From contig BAAIJX010000026.1 of the NCBI GenBank assembly GCA_054600435.1, positions 248,001-312,000 of the forward strand: 64,000 nucleotides of DNA, given 5' to 3'. Positions within the stretch are counted from its first letter, which is position 1. Each line of letters begins with the position of its first letter. Positions 48,488-57,917 of this stretch are shown piece after piece. Under the pieces are notes generated by a model, which had not been told where the DNA came from, did not search any database, and worked only from the letters and a program-made list of their open reading frames with translations. The position numbers and the translations under genes are program-made. The DNA is from Neophaeotheca triangularis (Eukaryota).

Positions 48488-49987
48488 TCACTCGACCCCG
48501 AACACGGCCCTAAACCTCCTCCAAAGCTCCCCTTGCATAGCCCTCCTGCTCTCGCCAGTCCGACTAGCAGCATCCTTGTTCTCCGCCGCCCTCCGGAGCA
48601 AATAATTCAAACACTCCGTCATGGATCCCCAAGTCGTGCACTTGAAAACCTGCTCCCTCAACAACCCCTTCCGCGTGGCTTCGGAACTGGAGACGTCGGC
48701 TTTGGCGGCCGCGAGCAACTGGCACGAGACTTCGTCGGCCATGCCTTGTAGTTGCGCGAAGGAGAGGGGGGTTAAGGACGTGCCTGTGGCGTGTTGGTCT
48801 TGGCGGAGGGCTTGCATCTGGGTCACGGTGGCGGCGTTGTGGGTCGCGAGGACGATGTTGGTGGCGGGCCAATTGGATGAAGAGGCGGACGGGGTGGCGG
48901 GGCGCAAGAGTGAGTTGTAGGAGCGTTGGATCAGCGCCGTCGCCAGGGTGTCGTAGGCGTGGTGGGTGGCTTCGATGGTATCGTGGATGAGGCTGCGTTG
49001 TTCGCTGTGCAGGTATGCGCCGCGGACGAGTTTGGCGCCGAGAATGAAGTTTTCGTTGCGGGCGGTTTCGAGGTGCTGGGAAAGGCTCGCCGGCATGGAC
49101 TTGAGGTAAGCTTGGTAGGTGTTGTAGACGACGGCTTTGCCGTTGGTGTTGTAGCTGCGCTGCATGGTCATGCACCAGCTGAAGAAGGCGTCGAGGGTGT
49201 TGGTTTCTTCGGCCGCTGGGAGGAGGGAAATATCTTTGTCTTTGGCTGCTTGGCAGACGGTGCGCATTGCCTCCTCCATGCGCTCGCTCGGGGCGTCATT
49301 GGCGAGCATTCGACGCAGGGCGGCGGGCCCCATGCCGCTCCATTTGAGGCCGACGAAGTCGCCGGGTTGGCTCATCTCGATTGTGTCGAGCAAGCCCTTG
49401 CGCCATACTGCTACGTCTGTTGCCTCATGGCCTTCGGCGTCCTTGAGCACCTCCAAGGCATACTCAAGGATCACTCCCGCATAACCTTGCTGCCTCAGAC
49501 CGGCACATGTGCGGTCAATTTGCGTCTTGCTCTCTCCTGCACAGAATTGCTTGTAGAATGTCTCCCATAGTATCCAGCGGAGGAGGGGATTCTTCTGCAC
49601 GTTGAAGAGGGGGCTTTTGCTCTCGAGCATGAGTCGGAGAACAGCTGTCGAAGCGCTGAGAAGGGTCGGTGACGAGGAGAGGGTGGTGATCAGATACGTC
49701 CTGAGGACTTGGGAAAGAGGGAGGCTTGCAAGAGCTGATTTCGAAACGCCAGGCTGAGCTTGCAGAGGGGGTGAGGCTGCTGGAGGAGGCGGACTGGGTT
49801 GGTTTGCCAGTGTGAAAGCTTGAGCAGAGGCATCTGGACGGGTGGAATGAAGCTGCCGTCGGTGTGGTTGGGTGGTCGTATGCGCTGCTCTGACACAGAG
49901 GAGGGGGGCGTAGCCGTTCCTTTTTGTGACGGAAGAAGACGAGAGCAGGACAGCCTCGATACGCTGCATGCGCAAAGAAGGCTTCAT
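48488..49987 (-). CDS. PUT1: Mitochondrial proline dehydrogenase (proline oxidase)
   Basis: 499 aa; presequence, 'FYKQFCAGE', 'YNTYQAYLK', 'GAKLVRGAY', 'LATHN', 'AQLQGMADEVS', 'YLLRRAAEN'. Confidence 0.95.
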   Translation of the reverse strand: MKPSLRMQRIEAVLLSSSSVTKRNGYAPLLCVRAAHTTTQPHRRQLHSTRPDASAQAFTLANQPSPPPPAASPPLQAQPGVSKSALASLPLSQVLRTYLITTLSSSPTLLSASTAVLRLMLESKSPLFNVQKNPLLRWILWETFYKQFCAGESKTQIDRTCAGLRQQGYAGVILEYALEVLKDAEGHEATDVAVWRKGLLDTIEMSQPGDFVGLKWSGMGPAALRRMLANDAPSERMEEAMRTVCQAAKDKDISLLPAAEETNTLDAFFSWCMTMQRSYNTNGKAVVYNTYQAYLKSMPASLSQHLETARNENFILGAKLVRGAYLHSEQRSLIHDTIEATHHAYDTLATALIQRSYNSLLRPATPSASSSNWPATNIVLATHNAATVTQMQALRQDQHATGTSLTPLSFAQLQGMADEVSCQLLAAAKADVSSSEATRKGLLREQVFKCTTWGSMTECLNYLLRRAAENKDAASRTGESRRAMQGELWRRFRAVFGVE

Positions 49988-51566
49988 CGTCGTTGTTGTT
50001 GTCGTCGTCGTCGCTAGTTGATGAGAGCTCGATACTGTTGAAGAGGACGGTGGGAGATGGATAGATCAATAGCAAGCGAACGAGGTTGATTCGAGCAACA
50101 AGCGAGAGCAGAGAGGTACTTGGCCTTGAAGTCTATCACGGGACGAAGGAAACCCTTATACTTGTCGCCCCCATTGACGGGACTCACGTCGTCGCCGCGA
50201 TCGCAGTCTCCCGTCACGGAGCTGCGAGGCAAAGAATGATAAAGGCGCGGCTACTGTCGGCGTCCTTTGTACTCGCCAGCCCCACCGTTCCGGCCCCCAC
50301 GCCGCTTTCACAGCTCGAGCTCGCCTTGTACGGCTGGGCGGTGAACAGCGGCAGAATACTGGCTGCGGCTGGGTGCGGTTAAGACTTTTTATGGAGAAGC
50401 TGGTCGACATCACCTCTTGGCTGCCGGCAGAGCGTGAGAAGAGATTGCCTTTGCCGGTGGGTACGCAGGGCTGGAATCGTCTTTCAATTACGTTTCCTGG
50501 AAGTCGAGGGCTTCTGGCCGCAGAAGTGAGAACGTCCCAGATGATCGTTTTGTGGAGTCTTATCTCGTGGGGAAGTATGGACCGGGCGCATTCGCAAGGG
50601 TTGTGGACTGCATGCCCATCAACCTCACAGCCCCTCGGGGACTCCTTGAACCTCCGTATCCACATGTGCTCGGGTATTCTTCTGCTTACCGTCAGCACGA
50701 TCCTTTCTTGATGTCGAGTAGTAGTGAATGGCCCAAGCAGCGTCCCAATTCCCGCCTAAAGAGATTGATGCGGTGCTTCGTTCAAGCCAGGCATCATGAG
50801 GGTTCCTCTTGCTGCGTCTGAGCAACAAAGTGGTACTATCGTAAGTGAATAGTATCGATCTAAAGTCACCCGGGGTGGGTGGACGAGAATGTGGTACCGG
50901 CGGTGGTTCTGAACGGAACGATTTTTGTGCTGTGCACACTGCTATGTACACAATCCAACCATACAATCCGAGGCGCTGTCCATCACCAAAGCAACAGCGA
51001 CGTCGCGATGTCTCTATCAATGTGCAGCTCCAGGCCAAACAGCACCGGAAAGACAAGACGGACACCGGTGCTGCTCGAGGTAAAGTACGGTACGCTAAGC
51101 TGCAATATCCATCTCAGTATCTCTTCTCCATCTCTTCCATCTCTTGTCGATCTATGGGCCCCCTTGCTCTCAAACCACACCACTGATCTTCCGCACTACT
51201 TTCCGCCTGCAATATTTGCCCCAAGTCGCGCTGACTTGTTAGCTGGCTCAGGTCCCAAGGGCAAAGGACCATATCCGGGCGTACCAGTTGTTGGCGTGTC
51301 TCAAATGGTTGCCGCCATTCCCTCCCTTGGCTCTTCCGCGCGATTGCTGGGGCCTTCCACGACCTCGTTCCTCTGGCCATCTGAGGAGTCGTGGCCGCGC
51401 ACCGAAGGGTGGTCTCGGTCGTACTGGTCAGCGCCATAGCCATTGCGGGCCATCGTGGCGCACTACTTGCAGCCGAGCCACTCCAGGCTCCACGACTCTG
51501 TTTGCAGCCATAAAGGCTATGGGGGTGGTGGTCAGGAAGCTAGAGAATCCTACAGCCGGCGGACCG

Positions 51567-51617
51567 GAAGTAGTCGCGTTTGAGATGATTGTAGGCGGGC
51601 AAGTAGATGGCGCTGAA
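51567..51617 (-). pseudogene. Short fragment of mitochondrial aspartate/glutamate carrier (Agc1-like)
   Basis: '[17 protein letters not shown]' closely resembles Agc1 'FSAIYFPTYxHLKxDxF'; frameshifted traces 'FLTT' and 'WLQTE' downstream resemble 'YLTTP...RLQVE'. Confidence 0.65.
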
Positions 51618-51767
51618 GGTGGAAGTGGTCCGGGCGAGTGCCATTCGCACTGGGAGCACCAAAGGCGTAACGTGGCACGATGGCGCTCTGTTTACTGCCA
51701 TATAGGCATTTCTATAGAAACGTTCCGTCGGAGGGCCGAAGGCCAAAATCCGGAGTGGGCGGTAGGC

Positions 51768-52133
51768 TTCGAACAGGCTGGGAATAAGGAGGCTGAGCAG
51801 GTGCAGCAACATGCCCAGGGCAATGTGCTTGACCACTACGGCGGCTGTTTGGCGATGGGCCTGGATGCAGCCGGTGAGGGCGTCTTTGAGTAGTGGTATG
51901 ACGGCGTAGACGTAATCTTTGTCCATCTCGCCGATGTACTCGAAGAGAAAGGACAAGGCCTCGAGCGATGCGACCTGGTCGTGAAGCTCTGGCAAGCGGT
52001 AGTCCTTCATCCGCACCGAAAGCACGGTGAATGGCTGACAGGTCTCGGCAGCCTCCCCAATGGCGATAGCAGCGCAGACACGGCTCTGACGCTCTTGGGC
52101 ACGAATGTCGTTGAGCAGAGTTGAGAGAACGTT
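51768..52133 (-). pseudogene. Degenerate internal fragment of U2 snRNP splicing factor SF3B1/Hsh155 (C-terminal HEAT repeats)
   Basis: '[37 protein letters not shown]...[27 protein letters not shown]...[15 protein letters not shown]' matches the recalled SF3B1 consensus, with radical substitutions and a deletion; only ~120 of ~1200 aa are present. Confidence 0.85.
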
Positions 52134-55112
52134 CGAGTCGTTCTTTCTCGCTTCGCAGGAGCGAGAGCCAACGCGTTCGCGATAGCCTTGGGGGTGGTGG
52201 TGAGGAAGCTGAAGTATTTCTGCTAGAGAACCAGGAATCGGTAATATTGGGGATTGGAGGTAGATTGTCTCGAGCTGCAGGCCTATAATCTGACTGCCGA
52301 TATTGGAATTGGGATCGTTGTGAGTCGGCGCGGTCTGAACGTGGTGTCGATGCTTGGTCGCTCTCTTGCTCTGCACTGACATTTTCGGCCAATAACTATC
52401 AATTGAAGGTTTATCCGCATTGTTGACCAGGAGTTCCGATGACAACCGCGAGGGCGATGCCTCAGACCGAATTGCCATAGCGGGACAGTGATATTGTGAT
52501 GTGCAATACACAGGAGCTGGAATGTTGTTCGCGGAACCTAGGAGCTTCTGCCTCTTTCTCGCTGCCTACTGTCATTGTTAGACGCGAAATCGAGCGTTAA
52601 AAGAATTCCGTGGACTAGGACTTACCGAATGGCCCTGAAATCTTCTCTGTGTGGTCTTCTGTTTCTCAGCTGAGGTGAGGAACATCGTGTGAAGAGAAAG
52701 TGATTGCTAGTCGATTGAGCTGAGAAACTAGGCAATAGTAGGTCGTCTCGGTGGTACCTGCATGGCAGCACTCGATACGCGTGATTAAGAGGTTGCAAGG
52801 GAGGAGAACAGCGTATACGATTAGAGGGAGCTGAATGTTGCAGAATTTGGTTGTATTGGTAGTAGAGTTTGAGTCGTGTATGGGATCTACGCCTCACTGG
52901 AGACTTCTAGGCAACAGAGAAACCCCCATTGCTGGCCTCACTGGCGACACAAGGCTGCCTGAGGCTGGTCAGAGTACGTAACCGAGACCTTGGCACACAG
53001 CCTCGATTCCACCTATTTAAGAAGCTCCGCGCCCCGTTTCATCTATCGTTCCTTCTTCCTCCTCCTATGCCAGGTTGTGATAACGTATTCCGTTCTTGAT
53101 CCTACAGTAGTCGGTGAGTAACTCCCCCCGGAAACGTTTCAATTCAAAGACTTAACTAACTTGGCAAGTTGCTTGCGAGCTATACTAACCTGGCTAGTAT
53201 AACGGACGATCTGCCGTCTTTCACAGCAACAATCCTACTGTCCACTTCTGTCCAGAGTCAGACGTTGCCTCTTGACTGTCTGGCTTTGATATATGTGGAG
53301 CACAGAGCAAAGCAGTGGAACATGGCGGCGCAGTGCTTGACGTCCTCTGGCGTTCTTGCTTACCGATCCTTCCTACATCTCTTACCTTTTCATCAGTCTT
53401 CTTGCTCAGAGCAGGAGGCTGGAGAAGAGAGAGCAACTCCCTAACAGCAACGCACCTGCACAACTTGCGTAAAACGTAGCTACGAAAGCCGTCTCGTGAT
53501 CCCCATTACGTGCTACGCCTTTTGAACAACGCGCCCTGAACTGCCTAGCAGTGAATTGGTAGTTGCGAACCACTGATCATAACAGCGCGCTGGGCAACCT
53601 TAGCTTGACTAGTTTGAAGAGTGAGAGGCCCAAAATTTGACATTCAGCCCTTGGTAATGTGTTTGTACCTGCCAGAAACGCCTCATGATTTCTCGCGCTT
53701 GATTGATGTGCGTCTTGTTCCCTTCCTAACCCGCAAGTTCCAGAATAACGCTTGAGTAGGGCATATATCTCTGCGAGCGTTCCCTACGCGCTTCTGTGCG
53801 GGCAAGGACAGGTCGGAAGCCTTGACACATACCTTAGACGTAGGGAGGTGCATTTACGGGAACATTGAGCCCCCCAAGAACAAACTTGTCATATTCAGTG
53901 CTCTTGCCACGCCGTATTAATTGGAAGGAGAATGGGGCCACGCTAGTCGCTTGAGGAAGGGGCTGCGGTATTGTTCAAGACGCGTCTTCAGCGGCTGCCT
54001 CCCGCGCCTCGATGCCTCGCCTTGCTTCTTCGTTTTTCATCACATCCCTTCTCCCTCTCCAGACACGCCGCCATCCATCCACACATTAATTTCACGCATT
54101 ATTCCGATGTAAAATGCCAGCGTCAGGACCACATCCACCAGCTGGTCGTAGCCACATCCTCTCATATCTTGCTAACAGAGCTCATCGCCCCTGGCTCAAA
54201 CATCCATGAGGTCAGTCTCAAATATCATCAGTCCCCTCACCGTCTTCAAATCACGCTCCCCTTTCATCTACTAATGATCGTTATAGGAACCCTTCTGCCG
54301 TAGCCGCGCCACGTCAACTACCCAACGTCTGTTCAGGGCCGGCTTTCATGTACCTCTCTTATCCTCCGAAAGATCGCTCACCGCTGCTACACTCGAATCT
54401 CACAAGAGAAGCTCAATCTCCGCACCATCCGAGTAGTCCGTCCAGGAGCAAAGAGCTTGGATCATTCGGTTGGGGCATGGATGTCTGGTTCTGTCATGCT
54501 CCATGGACCATCTGCCGACAGCTGACAACGATCGACTGCTTCATTTGTCACTCAGTCCCGGAGTCGCTGTCAAGAGAACCTCGAGGGCCACGCGTAACCT
54601 GCGGGCTTGCCGCGGATCATGACTAGTATCTTTACTGTGATGGCCCCCAGCGTGAGATCATTTACTTGATGCTCTTTCAGGCTCGGTAAGCTAGTCCCGT
54701 CACCGCCTCGGAAGGGTCTTTCTAACACTCCAACAGCAACCAGCGGAGCGACAGTAATACATATACTTGGTCTCCTTCCACCGGACGATTGCGTGTCTGC
54801 GAGACATGGGTCCCAGCCTAACTGGCCGACGGTTCCCTCGGACCGCCCACTCGTCTTGATCACGGTCATCACATCGCTTGATGCGTCGGCCAACTCATCC
54901 CTTCCATCGCAGCTTTCCTCCCCATAGCTACCTCCGCTATCTTGTCGTCGGTTCAGTTGTTACTCTCAAGTGGCTTTTGCTGCTGAGCCTATCCTTGTTC
55001 GGAACAACATCTCGTGCGATACGGCCTTATGAACAACTCGGCATCGGGCCCGAGGCCTCTCTCAGCACAAACCAGAGCTTCGCCGCCGGATGCGAGCCGT
55101 GACGCTGGCACC

Positions 55113-55290
55113 AGCGATATCACTTACTACGCCCCTGACCTCGGCTCGTGCGGCGGGAGTCACGGCGCTTTCGACAATATTGTCGCTCTCTCCCACGTTA
55201 TCACGACCACCCAGAACGGAGGCAACCCCAACAACAGCCCTCTGTGCGGCTCGACCATCACCACCCACTACAGGGCTATGAGACACTAGG
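55113..55290 (+). pseudogene. Truncated RlpA-like double-psi beta-barrel (expansin-like/Asp f 7-like) domain
   Basis: 'DITYYAPDLGSCG...IVALSH...NGGNPNNSPLCGSTIT.HY', then frameshift/stop; the 'VVD.C..C...DLS' half is missing; no upstream signal peptide in frame. Confidence 0.75.
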
Positions 55291-55841
55291 CTGCAACCCG
55301 TGCGATACGGCCTTAATACAAGTCGTCAGCGCGTCGGTGCGGACGTGCACAGATACTACGACTGGATGGACTTCCGGTCACATCTACCTCGTGTGACAAG
55401 ACCTCATGAAGACCTCGGAATCGGCAGCTCGGTTTTTGGGCCCAGCTACCACCACCACCAAACTTGTCTGTCATTCTTATCCCTTCCACCCACTTACCAC
55501 ATTCTTTACACCACAAACGCTTGCAAACCACTGCTATACAGCACCTTCCGTTTCACACCAAAAAGACAACCAATCACACACCCCGGTCCCCCACGACAGC
55601 CAACGGAACTTTCACCAAGATGGCGCCATCACTATGGCGGCCTCCGCTGTCTCCACCCGCGACGAGTGTAGCGGCTCGTGCGATACGACCTTATGGAACA
55701 TCCGCCAGCAATGGCACTCTTGTTGCAGACGCTCTTCTGCTACAACGCTGCAACGGGATTGGCCTTTCGGTTTTCTCCACCTCTTGCGTCGACGCGACGC
55801 CCAGCCTATGGGCGCCTTGGCCACGGGCGCCATAGGCGACA

Positions 55842-56100
55842 AACGCGGCACCGTGGACATCACCGAGGCGGCGACGGTCATCGAGACCGTCGTCGTCACC
55901 CACACTGTCTGGGTCGACCCTCAACCAACGCGGCACTGTGGACGTCACCGAGACCGCGAGGGTCATCAAGACCGTCGCCGTCACCCACACTGTCTGGGTC
56001 GACCCTCAACCAACGCCGCACTGTGGACGTCACCGAGACCGCGAGGGTCATCAAGACCGTCGCCATCACCCGCACTGTCTGGGTCGAGCCTCAACCCACT
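55842..56100 (+). repeat. 85-bp tandem triplication of a coding-derived segment
   Basis: GTGGAC anchors at 55853, 55938 and 56023; each unit reads 'VD.TE.A.VI.TV..T.TVWV.PQPT', shifting frame in each copy. Confidence 0.93.
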
Positions 56101-56822
56101 CGCGCCCGCCACGGCCACGGCCGCAGCTACCTTGTCGGTGCGTGGGCAAGGTTTTGAGGGCGGAAGTGGCTCTTTCAAAGGACACTTTAGGGGTTCTGAT
56201 AGCTTAATGTAATCAAGATTGGGTTTTTGCGAATGCCCATCACTGCGTCATGTCAAGGAGGTTGCATCGTCTTCGACTGTGACATTTTGTTATCTCTACC
56301 TAGGTACCTAGGTATTTACTGTAGACCTTTCTCAGCTTTGCACAAGAGCAATAATTCGGCCGCTGACAGTCTGATAGTCTACTAGGTGGCGCTTGCTTTT
56401 TTCAGGCTTACCAGGTACCTAAGTAGCTTTGGAGATGGAAGATTTGAATGGACCCACCGATCAACCGACCCACAACTACTTTCTCCACATTCAAGAAGGG
56501 TAATTCATCACTTCATCTTGTCTGTGACTGAATTTTTATTCATCTCCCGTCACTGAGCCGATCTACACCAATCGAATCCCAGCGTTATGCATGAGATCAG
56601 AGGCAATCAGCATGGCTCGATCAGCAAGAAGGGAATGTCCCATTTCAAGAACCTGCCGACGATAACTACCTTGCGCCGCACATTATGAGACATCCCCTTG
56701 CTGCGCGAGAAGTTCTGCAAGAAGTCTGCAAGAAACAACACCGTGCGGATTGCGTGGACGATAGAGAGCCATGCATCTTTGGGCCTAACACCGTCACCGA
56801 TTGTGGATAATAACTTGAATGT

Positions 56823-56967
56823 TAGAAGGAGACTTTTGAAACAGGAAAACAACGCAGGACGCCCCTGCTAGCCACATAACTTGGATGTTCAGTTGGACTG
56901 AGAATCGGGGAAGTGTGGCTAGCAGGGGCGTCCTGCGTCGTTTTCCTGTTTCAAAAGTCTCCTTCTA
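56823..56967. repeat. 54-bp near-perfect inverted repeat with 37-nt spacer (MITE-like or hairpin RNA)
   Basis: Arms 56823-56876 and 56914-56967 are reverse complements at 53/54 positions; the element begins and ends with TA. Confidence 0.93.
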
Positions 56968-57917
56968 TTCCTCGGTGAGACCTTGCACTCGTTCAGCAAA
57001 GTCGTCGTTTCTCTTGGCCTTCTCTTTGCCTGCTCTTGATCCTGCTCCTGTCGGCGTCCTAGTACTCTCCTCACACGCGAGGGCACTATTGGGATCGAGA
57101 ATTTGCGCATAGGCGGCTTTACCAACCGTTTGGGGATCGATTGAGACAGAGAAGCATGGCTTGCTCCCTAAAGACGCGGTTGGCTCCGTGCTAAGTGTAT
57201 CTTCGCTGACAGGTCAGAGTCATTGGGGATCCGATCCTTTGCCTTTACGAGGAGCGCAGTGGTTGGAGAATCCATCGCATATTATGAGGTCCAGTTGGCG
57301 CAGGCTTGCGAAGGCTTTGTAGATCGCGTCGATGGATCAATCTAGCGTCTTGAGAGTTTGGTAGGGGGACGATTGGTCGATGCTTTTCCTATATATCTTG
57401 CTGCGAAGATGATTGTCAGTAGGGTCTCCCAGGGAAATATCGATGGAGTCTAGACGCACCGTCCGTCCTGACCATGGCAAGATGCGCCGATGCTGGCTCC
57501 TCTGATTCGTAAATGTTAATAGGGGTATGCAGTGTGACAGTTTCGCTGCATCGTGAACAACGATAGACTCGATCAATCTACTCATCGTTCACTTACGCAT
57601 TCTCTTCATTTGCATTCTCACCGGCGCTCCAAGTGAAGCATGCCAAGGCAATGATGTCGCTGTCGCTAAGCAAAAGCACTGACCATGCTCGCACACACAA
57701 AACCGCGCTCCCCTCCCGATTTGTTTCCTCTTCCTCTTCCCAACCTCGACATCCATTTTGCACAGCTTTTTCAACCTCCATCCACACACCACCTCACAGT
57801 AAGTATCTTTCGCTGTCAGCACACAGTACAGCTCTCTCATCGCACATTCTATATGCCAATGTATTAACAAACATTCTCTCAGGCCGACACCTCACATCGT
57901 ATAAATGTCACTGGACA

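Follow-up and report, generated by a model that had tools for sequence, protein, structure and literature searches.

A stop-free patchwork of SF3B1 and Agc1 fragments in Neophaeotheca triangularis as a candidate product of template switching

A chimeric locus lies on contig BAAIJX010000026.1 of the fungus Neophaeotheca triangularis, in a stretch of 64,000 nucleotides that was analysed as a whole (the window; all coordinates refer to it). On the minus strand a single open reading frame (ORF) runs without a stop through a fragment of SF3B1 (Hsh155/Prp10) and a fragment of Agc1, and a piece matching a third locus lies just past its end. Three copies of a short motif are interspersed with these pieces. 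The features of the locus are given below.

51540–52565, minus strand: stop-to-stop frame P0001, 341 codons plus stop.
52221–52565, minus strand: the N-terminal part of the frame (115 codons), for which neither a homolog nor a Pfam family was found; composition not coding-like.
52168–52217, minus strand: motif copy A, with its 22-nt core at 52189–52210.
51768–52140 (secure; may extend to 52220), minus strand: SF3B1-derived piece, C-terminal HEAT repeats, corresponding to human residues ~1089–1222.
51618–51767, minus strand: filler that separates the SF3B1 piece from the Agc1 piece and holds motif copy C.
51676–51720, minus strand: motif copy C; most of the core is deleted in the allele of the window.
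51567–51617, minus strand: piece derived from Agc1, an EF-hand aspartate/glutamate mitochondrial carrier; 17 codons (51 nt), sharply bounded and keeping the frame and strand of the donor.
51490–51548, minus strand: motif copy B, with its 22-nt core at 51520–51541, including the stop codon of the frame.
51337–51485, no strand assigned: piece copied from a third locus, 90–95% similar to contigs of the probable source strain over 51365–51485.

Public contigs were placed on 50500–53100; they derive from the probable source strain (X1), a second isolate (X2) and an air metagenome (X4). Second copies were sought in the X1 contigs at a likeness of at least 80%.

The initial annotation had given the frame 323 codons. 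The stop-free span is real, but from stop to stop it measures 341 codons. A database gene model, P0002, starts at Met62 (coordinate 52382) and predicts a protein of 280 amino acids (aa) that is 100% identical to the frame. This protein is a singleton among 5.8 billion clusters, with one member on one contig of 321,829 bp. When 1.84 billion representatives were searched exhaustively with HMMER, 619 proteins reached E ≤ 0.001; apart from the window's own protein, 149 of these were listed, and their alignments are confined to residues ~113–328. All matches that carry names or were fetched are SF3B1. The SF3B1 piece is also the only part of the frame with coding-like composition, its codon log-likelihood of 0.24–0.26 comparing with 0.11–0.26 for real genes in the window. 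The N-terminal 115 codons score −0.014, which is close to zero, and the filler scores ~0. No second copy of the filler was found in X1, and it has no match in Pfam, PDB or the ESM Atlas. An AlphaFold2 model made with the SF3B1 alignment has a mean predicted local distance difference test score (pLDDT) of 48.9, with residues 1–80 all below 50. The tail of the frame (residues 268–341) was suspected to be a diverged SF3B1 C-terminus, since two BLAST alignments reached residues 326–328. When it was compared with a profile of 84 SF3B1 C-termini, however, the ~57 rows listed were all shuffled sequences and the real tail was absent, and this reading was dropped. Tail homologs were likewise absent from PDB, Pfam and the ESM Atlas; a word-indexed protein search that included longer lengths gave seven candidates, none with E ≤ 10, and a search of metagenomes for related loci yielded 594 pattern matches, none of which was confirmed.

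The fragment of about 120 aa of SF3B1 that had been proposed is secure. The PDB SF3B1 chain 6en4_C matches frame residues 142–267 with E 2.6e-37 (human residues 1089–1222), the best HMMER match, P0003, covers the same residues at 61% identity (E 7.3e-37), and Blumeria prp10 (P0153) is 55.9% identical over 161 aa at 52220–51768. Taken by themselves, the 28 codons with which the BLAST alignment begins (52141–52220) lack significance, as 179 of 2000 shuffles score as well, and thus the secure span is ~124 codons, 51768–52140. The same result gives no support to the view that motif copy A belongs to the SF3B1 piece. The ~124 aligned residues belong to the HEAT repeats near the C-terminus and include residues of fungal type (QSRVC, AIG and KDYVYAV), but they represent only ~10–15% of the protein. 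There is no full-length SF3B1/Hsh155 in the window: tblastn with five SF3B1 proteins retrieved only 52220–51768 from the 64 kb, the remaining matches having E 2e-6 or worse and lying at unrelated places.

The SF3B1 piece has lost much of the constraint seen in its homologs. Invariant columns were defined as those conserved in at least 25 of 29 SF3B1 homologs; there are 82, of which 46 are kept, 30 are substituted and 6 are deleted, a loss of 36 that bears out the relaxed selection suggested at the outset for this part of the frame. The alignment contains LSVRMKDY in place of LPALMNEY, as described previously, and the reported loss of a segment resembling VVGLGCEDA reflects an in-frame deletion of eight residues (24 nt) where the donor reads VVGMGCEDAM; a further deletion removes 6 nt. 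It was also argued that the stretch includes part of the pladienolide pocket. This holds for its position but not for the pocket residues, as the residues aligned to K126, I128, R130 and A131, positions that we take to belong to the pocket, are replaced (K126Q, I128Y, R130E and A131R). At the nucleotide level the piece matches a 21.5-kb X1 contig in two tracts, with 21 of 154 nt differing over 51813–51966 and 9 of 81 over 52057–52137; the 90 nt between the tracts are diverged and of equal length in the window and the donor contig. The loose ends of that contig translate on the minus strand to VVGMGCEDAM, the very segment deleted in the fragment, and to FGYIARAIG, found just upstream in SF3B1; judged by these sequences, the contig is the parental SF3B1. 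When amino-acid changes were counted by hand against the fungal consensus, ~10 were found among the 21 nucleotide differences of 51813–51966, which would place the ratio of non-synonymous to synonymous substitution rates (dN/dS), as a rough estimate, near 0.4–0.5. Such a value is as expected for a neutral copy compared with a constrained parent.

The 17-residue segment resembling Agc1 was confirmed, 49 codons beyond the SF3B1 piece, and its match to the host's own gene extends to the nucleotide level (47 of 51 nt). The donor is a 17.7-kb X1 contig that matches exactly 51567–51617 (4 of 51 nt differ; 92% identity), and past the ends of this patch the window and the donor are unrelated, 6–10 of 30 nt matching. 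The identity of the donor was established from the strain contigs placed on the locus and from a degenerate-pattern scan of metagenome contigs, in which a pattern built from 13 of the window's own residues recovered at least 110 loci. All 110 of the loci listed contain FSAIYFP, and 90 of the 110 have the context C..RD.P. Translation of this contig's loose ends gives ASACLLRDVP and GESQTKKLGI, the flanking residues in metagenome genes that combine EF-hands with Mito_carr domains, and several of the listed loci carry a string agreeing with both loose ends. Mito_carr was present in all seven metagenome ORFs tested, and all five long ones (676–780 aa) have EF-hands and three carrier repeats; we take this architecture to be that of Agc1/aralar and use the name Agc1 on that assumption. 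When these ORFs were compared with the window by tblastn only 51617–51567 matched, with 15 of 17 identities. There is no complete carrier repeat (PF00153) at the locus, as neither the whole frame nor the tail has a Mito_carr match at E ≤ 1 or 10. A string in another frame, FLTTTP...ARLQV, was considered as further Agc1 sequence, and was attributed to chance as tblastn with the Agc1 ORFs found just the 17 residues. The donors of the SF3B1 and Agc1 pieces are therefore both found in the same genome, on separate X1 contigs and at the nucleotide level, and the proposal that the frame joins fragments of unrelated, conserved host genes is upheld.

The third piece matches two X1 contig ends that have a 33-mer in common (51424–51450). 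One contig differs at 9 of 86 nt over 51365–51450 and the other at 3 of 62 nt over 51424–51485. On the right the piece stops sharply at 51485; on the left its boundary is open, as similarity runs on to at least 51337 after a 2-nt indel. No coding-like frame and no Pfam family was found in 51337–51485. Between the pieces lie the motif copies. The 22-nt core AGCTTCCTSACCACCACCCCCA occurs twice in the 64 kb, in copies A and B, where zero occurrences are expected. When the two copies are aligned with their extensions (52217–52168 with 51548–51490), none of 1000 shuffles reaches the score. The extension of B (51517–51491) matches C (51707–51676) at 24 of 27 nt, a score that 5 of 1000 shuffles reach. 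In one X2 contig there are 18 extra nucleotides at copy C, and when these are interleaved by hand with the letters of the window the resulting core, a tentative reconstruction, is ~84% identical to that of B. Along the minus strand come, in turn, copy A with the SF3B1 piece behind it, copy C with the Agc1 piece, and copy B with the third piece, which starts 4 nt past the end of B; thus, every ectopic patch is preceded by a copy of one local motif of 30–50 nt. Copies A and B differ at 4 of 29 nt (14%), which is within the 8–14% that separates the alignable tracts of the patches from their donors. This similarity fits one event of one age.

It could be argued that SF3B1 and Agc1 reads were simply misjoined during assembly. 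One 4500-nt X1 contig, however, covers 51424–53100 with 0 differences at single-copy depth and bridges all SF3B1 and Agc1 junctions, and X2, which is 3–4% diverged, also carries the locus (contigs over 51624–51778 and 51988–53084). Thus, the mis-assembly that had been raised as a possible objection to the chimera is not borne out. Furthermore, the patches differ by 8–14% from their donors, and so do not represent misplaced donor reads, and an air-metagenome contig lends additional support. In favour of an artefact is the observation that the X1 unitigs (Logan) break at 51424–51450, at the 33-mer in common with the third donor, a join that is unbridged by the listed contigs. Overall, we view an assembly artefact as extremely improbable. 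The flanks of the mosaic (50500–51364 and 52138–53100) are single-copy in X1.

The air-metagenome contig is 151 nt long and is identical to the window over 51530–51680, across both Agc1 junctions. This identity indicates that the same or a near-identical strain is present in the X4 sample. In X2, pairs of half-depth contigs lie over the same places (for example 50500–50677 and 51624–51778) and contain differing numbers of differences; it appears that two haplotypes, or two strains, are present in this sample at the locus.

How the patchwork arose can be considered in the light of these data. Serial template switching by microhomology-mediated break-induced replication (MMBIR) or fork stalling and template switching (FoSTeS), and the capture of distant DNA at double-strand breaks, are described in the literature on human copy-number change and yeast break repair. 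The locus resembles such templated insertions in being single-copy, in its short patches (51 to ~450 nt) from unlinked donors with sharp ends, and in the re-copied local sequence interleaved with them. The features looked for in a template-switch product are present: three donors, sharp ends to the Agc1 patch and three copies of a local motif, each before a patch. It is the alternation of motif and patch that suggests serial template switching. It should be emphasized, however, that the defining signature of MMBIR/FoSTeS is microhomology at the junctions, and that the likeness here rests on layout, donors and sharp ends; at the upstream Agc1 junction a possible 5-nt overlap, TTCCA, was noted by eye, with 30 nt of donor flank at each junction. 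Moreover, the event is old (8–17% decay), and for that reason its single-event origin is something that we infer. Most likely the patches are DNA copies of sequence at three or more unlinked loci of the host, SF3B1 contributing ~370–450 nt, Agc1 51 nt and the third locus at least 149 nt. In one complex repair or replication event, of the MMBIR/FoSTeS type or that of templated insertion during break repair, the growing strand would have left its local template three times for a distant one, and after each jump would have returned and re-copied the same local motif. The whole patchwork may then have decayed in a roughly neutral manner. The 341-codon frame would have arisen because the SF3B1 piece supplied 124–152 open codons and its flanks stayed open by chance. 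Repair pathways of filamentous pathogens are treated in a review (PMC9779921). We are evenly balanced in our confidence that the locus is a lineage-specific chimeric pseudogene, a patchwork of ~0.9 kb generated in a single template-switch event and followed by roughly neutral decay. Repeat-induced point mutation (RIP) was considered as a cause of the divergence and rejected, as the indices of the mosaic are not RIP-like and the types of change display no asymmetry; at 14 places an A/T of the X1 donors stands against G/C in the window, and at 10 a donor G/C stands against A/T.

Several observations weigh against this reading. When 50100–52700 was shuffled with dinucleotides preserved, none of 500 sequences reached 341 codons (mean 159, longest 323), and the SF3B1 and Agc1 patches are both in their native frame on the same strand, which has a 1-in-6 probability by chance. 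Simulated neutral substitution left the SF3B1 piece stop-free in just 8–15% of cases (2000 runs per setting). In addition, the divergence of this piece is patchy, with two tracts at 86–89% identity and the rest below 80%, a pattern not predicted by simple neutral decay; explaining it would take an additional process, possibly gene conversion from the parent at a later stage, or else error-prone synthesis. Finally, the core of motif copy C was seen in one X2 contig only and was rebuilt by hand, and the 15 other differences of that contig are not listed.

The initial annotation offered both capture by a Helitron or Pack-MULE-like element and templated insertion at a break as possible origins, and it is the latter that provides the best fit. 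The locus might instead be the relic of gene-fragment capture by a non-autonomous Helitron or an element with terminal inverted repeats (Pack-TIR) whose recognisable ends have been lost, the motif copies being remnants of old element termini. Short stitched pieces of unrelated genes, at least two of them in the same orientation, make up the classic picture of capture; the intergenic region, at ~5.3 kb (50066–55396), is unusually long, and termini of the same age as the patches could have diverged beyond the likeness threshold of 80%. Helitrons with captured gene fragments are reported from fungi (PMC4289320, PMC5148889), and the elements described there resemble the locus in that a mosaic of unrelated host-gene fragments can be read as one chimeric frame. 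The locus differs from them, however, in its lack of a RepHel gene within 50050–57600, of recognisable termini and of related copies among the X1 contigs at the threshold used: domains of the RepHel, transposase or helicase kind are absent from all 62 ORFs scanned in that interval, and neither flank has a second copy. Nor is a hairpin plus CTRR conserved between the motif copies (CTAG in B, CTGA/TCAG in A), although 5'-TC/3'-CTRR ends, signals so short that they mean little at one old locus present once, were not searched for systematically. Pack-MULE and Pack-TIR elements also capture host gene fragments, sometimes from several genes (PMC8277862), but the mosaic is not bordered by long inverted repeats, those closest to it being ≤20 nt at 78–80%. 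Such a transposon origin appears unlikely to us, and a second mobile-element scenario far less plausible still. In the latter the reverse transcriptase of a long interspersed nuclear element (LINE) would have switched between mRNAs to make a chimeric retro-pseudogene, with the A/B repeat as its target-site duplication. Copies A and B do flank SF3B1 and Agc1 pieces of the same orientation, and chimeras of this type are documented in Magnaporthe, where LINE-mediated bipartite and tripartite transcript chimeras have short flanking direct repeats (14 bp; PMC2104539). Those chimeras, however, join the 3' part of a LINE or a short interspersed nuclear element (SINE) to non-coding RNA and bear LINE hallmarks, as that source presents them. 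At the present locus no LINE, SINE or reverse transcriptase part was found (Pfam, the same 62 ORFs; Rfam, 50000–55500), no poly(A) or A-rich tract precedes copy B, where the sequence is CGGTCCGCCGGCTGTAGG, and the pieces are internal coding fragments rather than transcript 3' ends. Furthermore, the third patch is outside the A–B interval, the third motif copy is inside it, and the repeat, at 22–29 nt, is imperfect.

A different question is whether the frame, however it was made, now has a function. It might be a young chimeric gene encoding a small HEAT-repeat protein, or a regulatory locus from which small RNAs act on SF3B1 and Agc1 transcripts. The failure of all 500 shuffles to reach its length, the in-frame state of both fragments, the existence of gene model P0002 and the persistence of the locus in the second isolate at 3–4% divergence are in accord with such a gene, and the SF3B1 tracts of 154 and 81 nt, still 86–89% identical to the donor, would suffice for pairing at the RNA level. 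Against this, P0002 has no ortholog, the N-terminal 115 codons and the tail are without a coding signature, 36 of the 82 invariant SF3B1 positions are lost, the structural model is poor (pLDDT 48.9) despite the SF3B1 alignment, and the Agc1 patch is merely 51 nt. In X2 the differences listed within the frame comprise 10 non-synonymous and 6 synonymous substitutions (n = 16), and a 1-nt insertion behind 51787, present in one X2 contig, may shift the frame. We therefore judge a functional gene or regulatory RNA to be rather improbable. Somewhat more doubtful again is a proto-gene, in which a repair accident would have joined exon-sized parts of two essential genes in frame, with new sequence in front of them, and the product would have been kept open in at least one lineage, acting as a HEAT-repeat decoy or as a source of small RNAs that tune SF3B1 and Agc1 through tracts of 81–154 nt still 86–92% identical to the donors. 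The evidence on selection leans to neutral decay. The frame probably makes no functional protein, the locus is most likely a neutral chimeric pseudogene, and the 280-aa database protein is probably the annotation of a pseudogene.

As a product of template switching, the locus would be a clean, natural, multi-donor templated mosaic in a filamentous fungus, in which the SF3B1 and Agc1 donors can be named and the internal layout records how it was made. Such loci indicate that error-prone break repair or replication restart can bring fragments of essential genes together in new open frames without transposons. Loci of this kind are thus raw material for de novo genes, and spurious gene models can also originate from them. 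No new type of system is represented here; the interest of the locus is modest and lies in how well the example is resolved and in the warning that it gives about the 280-aa gene model.

The window as a whole is that of a filamentous fungus, with ORFs of the Fungal_trans/Zn_clus, cyt-4 RNB, GH115, 6PGD, Pex2/Pex12 and ABC transporter families. A proline dehydrogenase gene occupies 48488–50065 on the minus strand, and upstream of it the chimeric locus is contained in the gap of 50066–55396, which has no recognisable gene. The 62 ORFs of at least 55 aa in 50050–57600 gave no Pfam match above the cut-off and three weak ones below it, an Rfam scan of 50000–55500 was without a match, and none of the long ORFs flanking the locus has coding-like codon usage. 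Overlapping frames of 140–230 codons occur on both strands of 50156–52400 (50156–50755, 50178–50711, 50864–51439, 51243–51893 and 51712–52395); they lack Pfam matches and coding-like codon usage, and stop trinucleotides are scarce in this region. Further along, an 85-nt unit is present in three tandem copies of 85–90% identity at 55839–56102, inside a 271-aa ORF (55397–56212, plus strand) that belongs to no Pfam family and whose codon usage is not coding-like; as the period is not a multiple of three, the copies would be read in differing frames. At 56823–56967 there is a near-perfect palindrome, its two 71-nt arms 87% complementary around a 3-nt spacer, which could be a small foldback element or one similar to a miniature inverted-repeat transposable element. 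Adjoining the mosaic, 52500–53499 is the sole mildly RIP-like part of the region from 48 to 58 kb, with TpA/ApT of 1.14–1.35, (CpA+TpG)/(ApC+GpT) of 1.00–1.09 and a GC content of 0.49–0.50.

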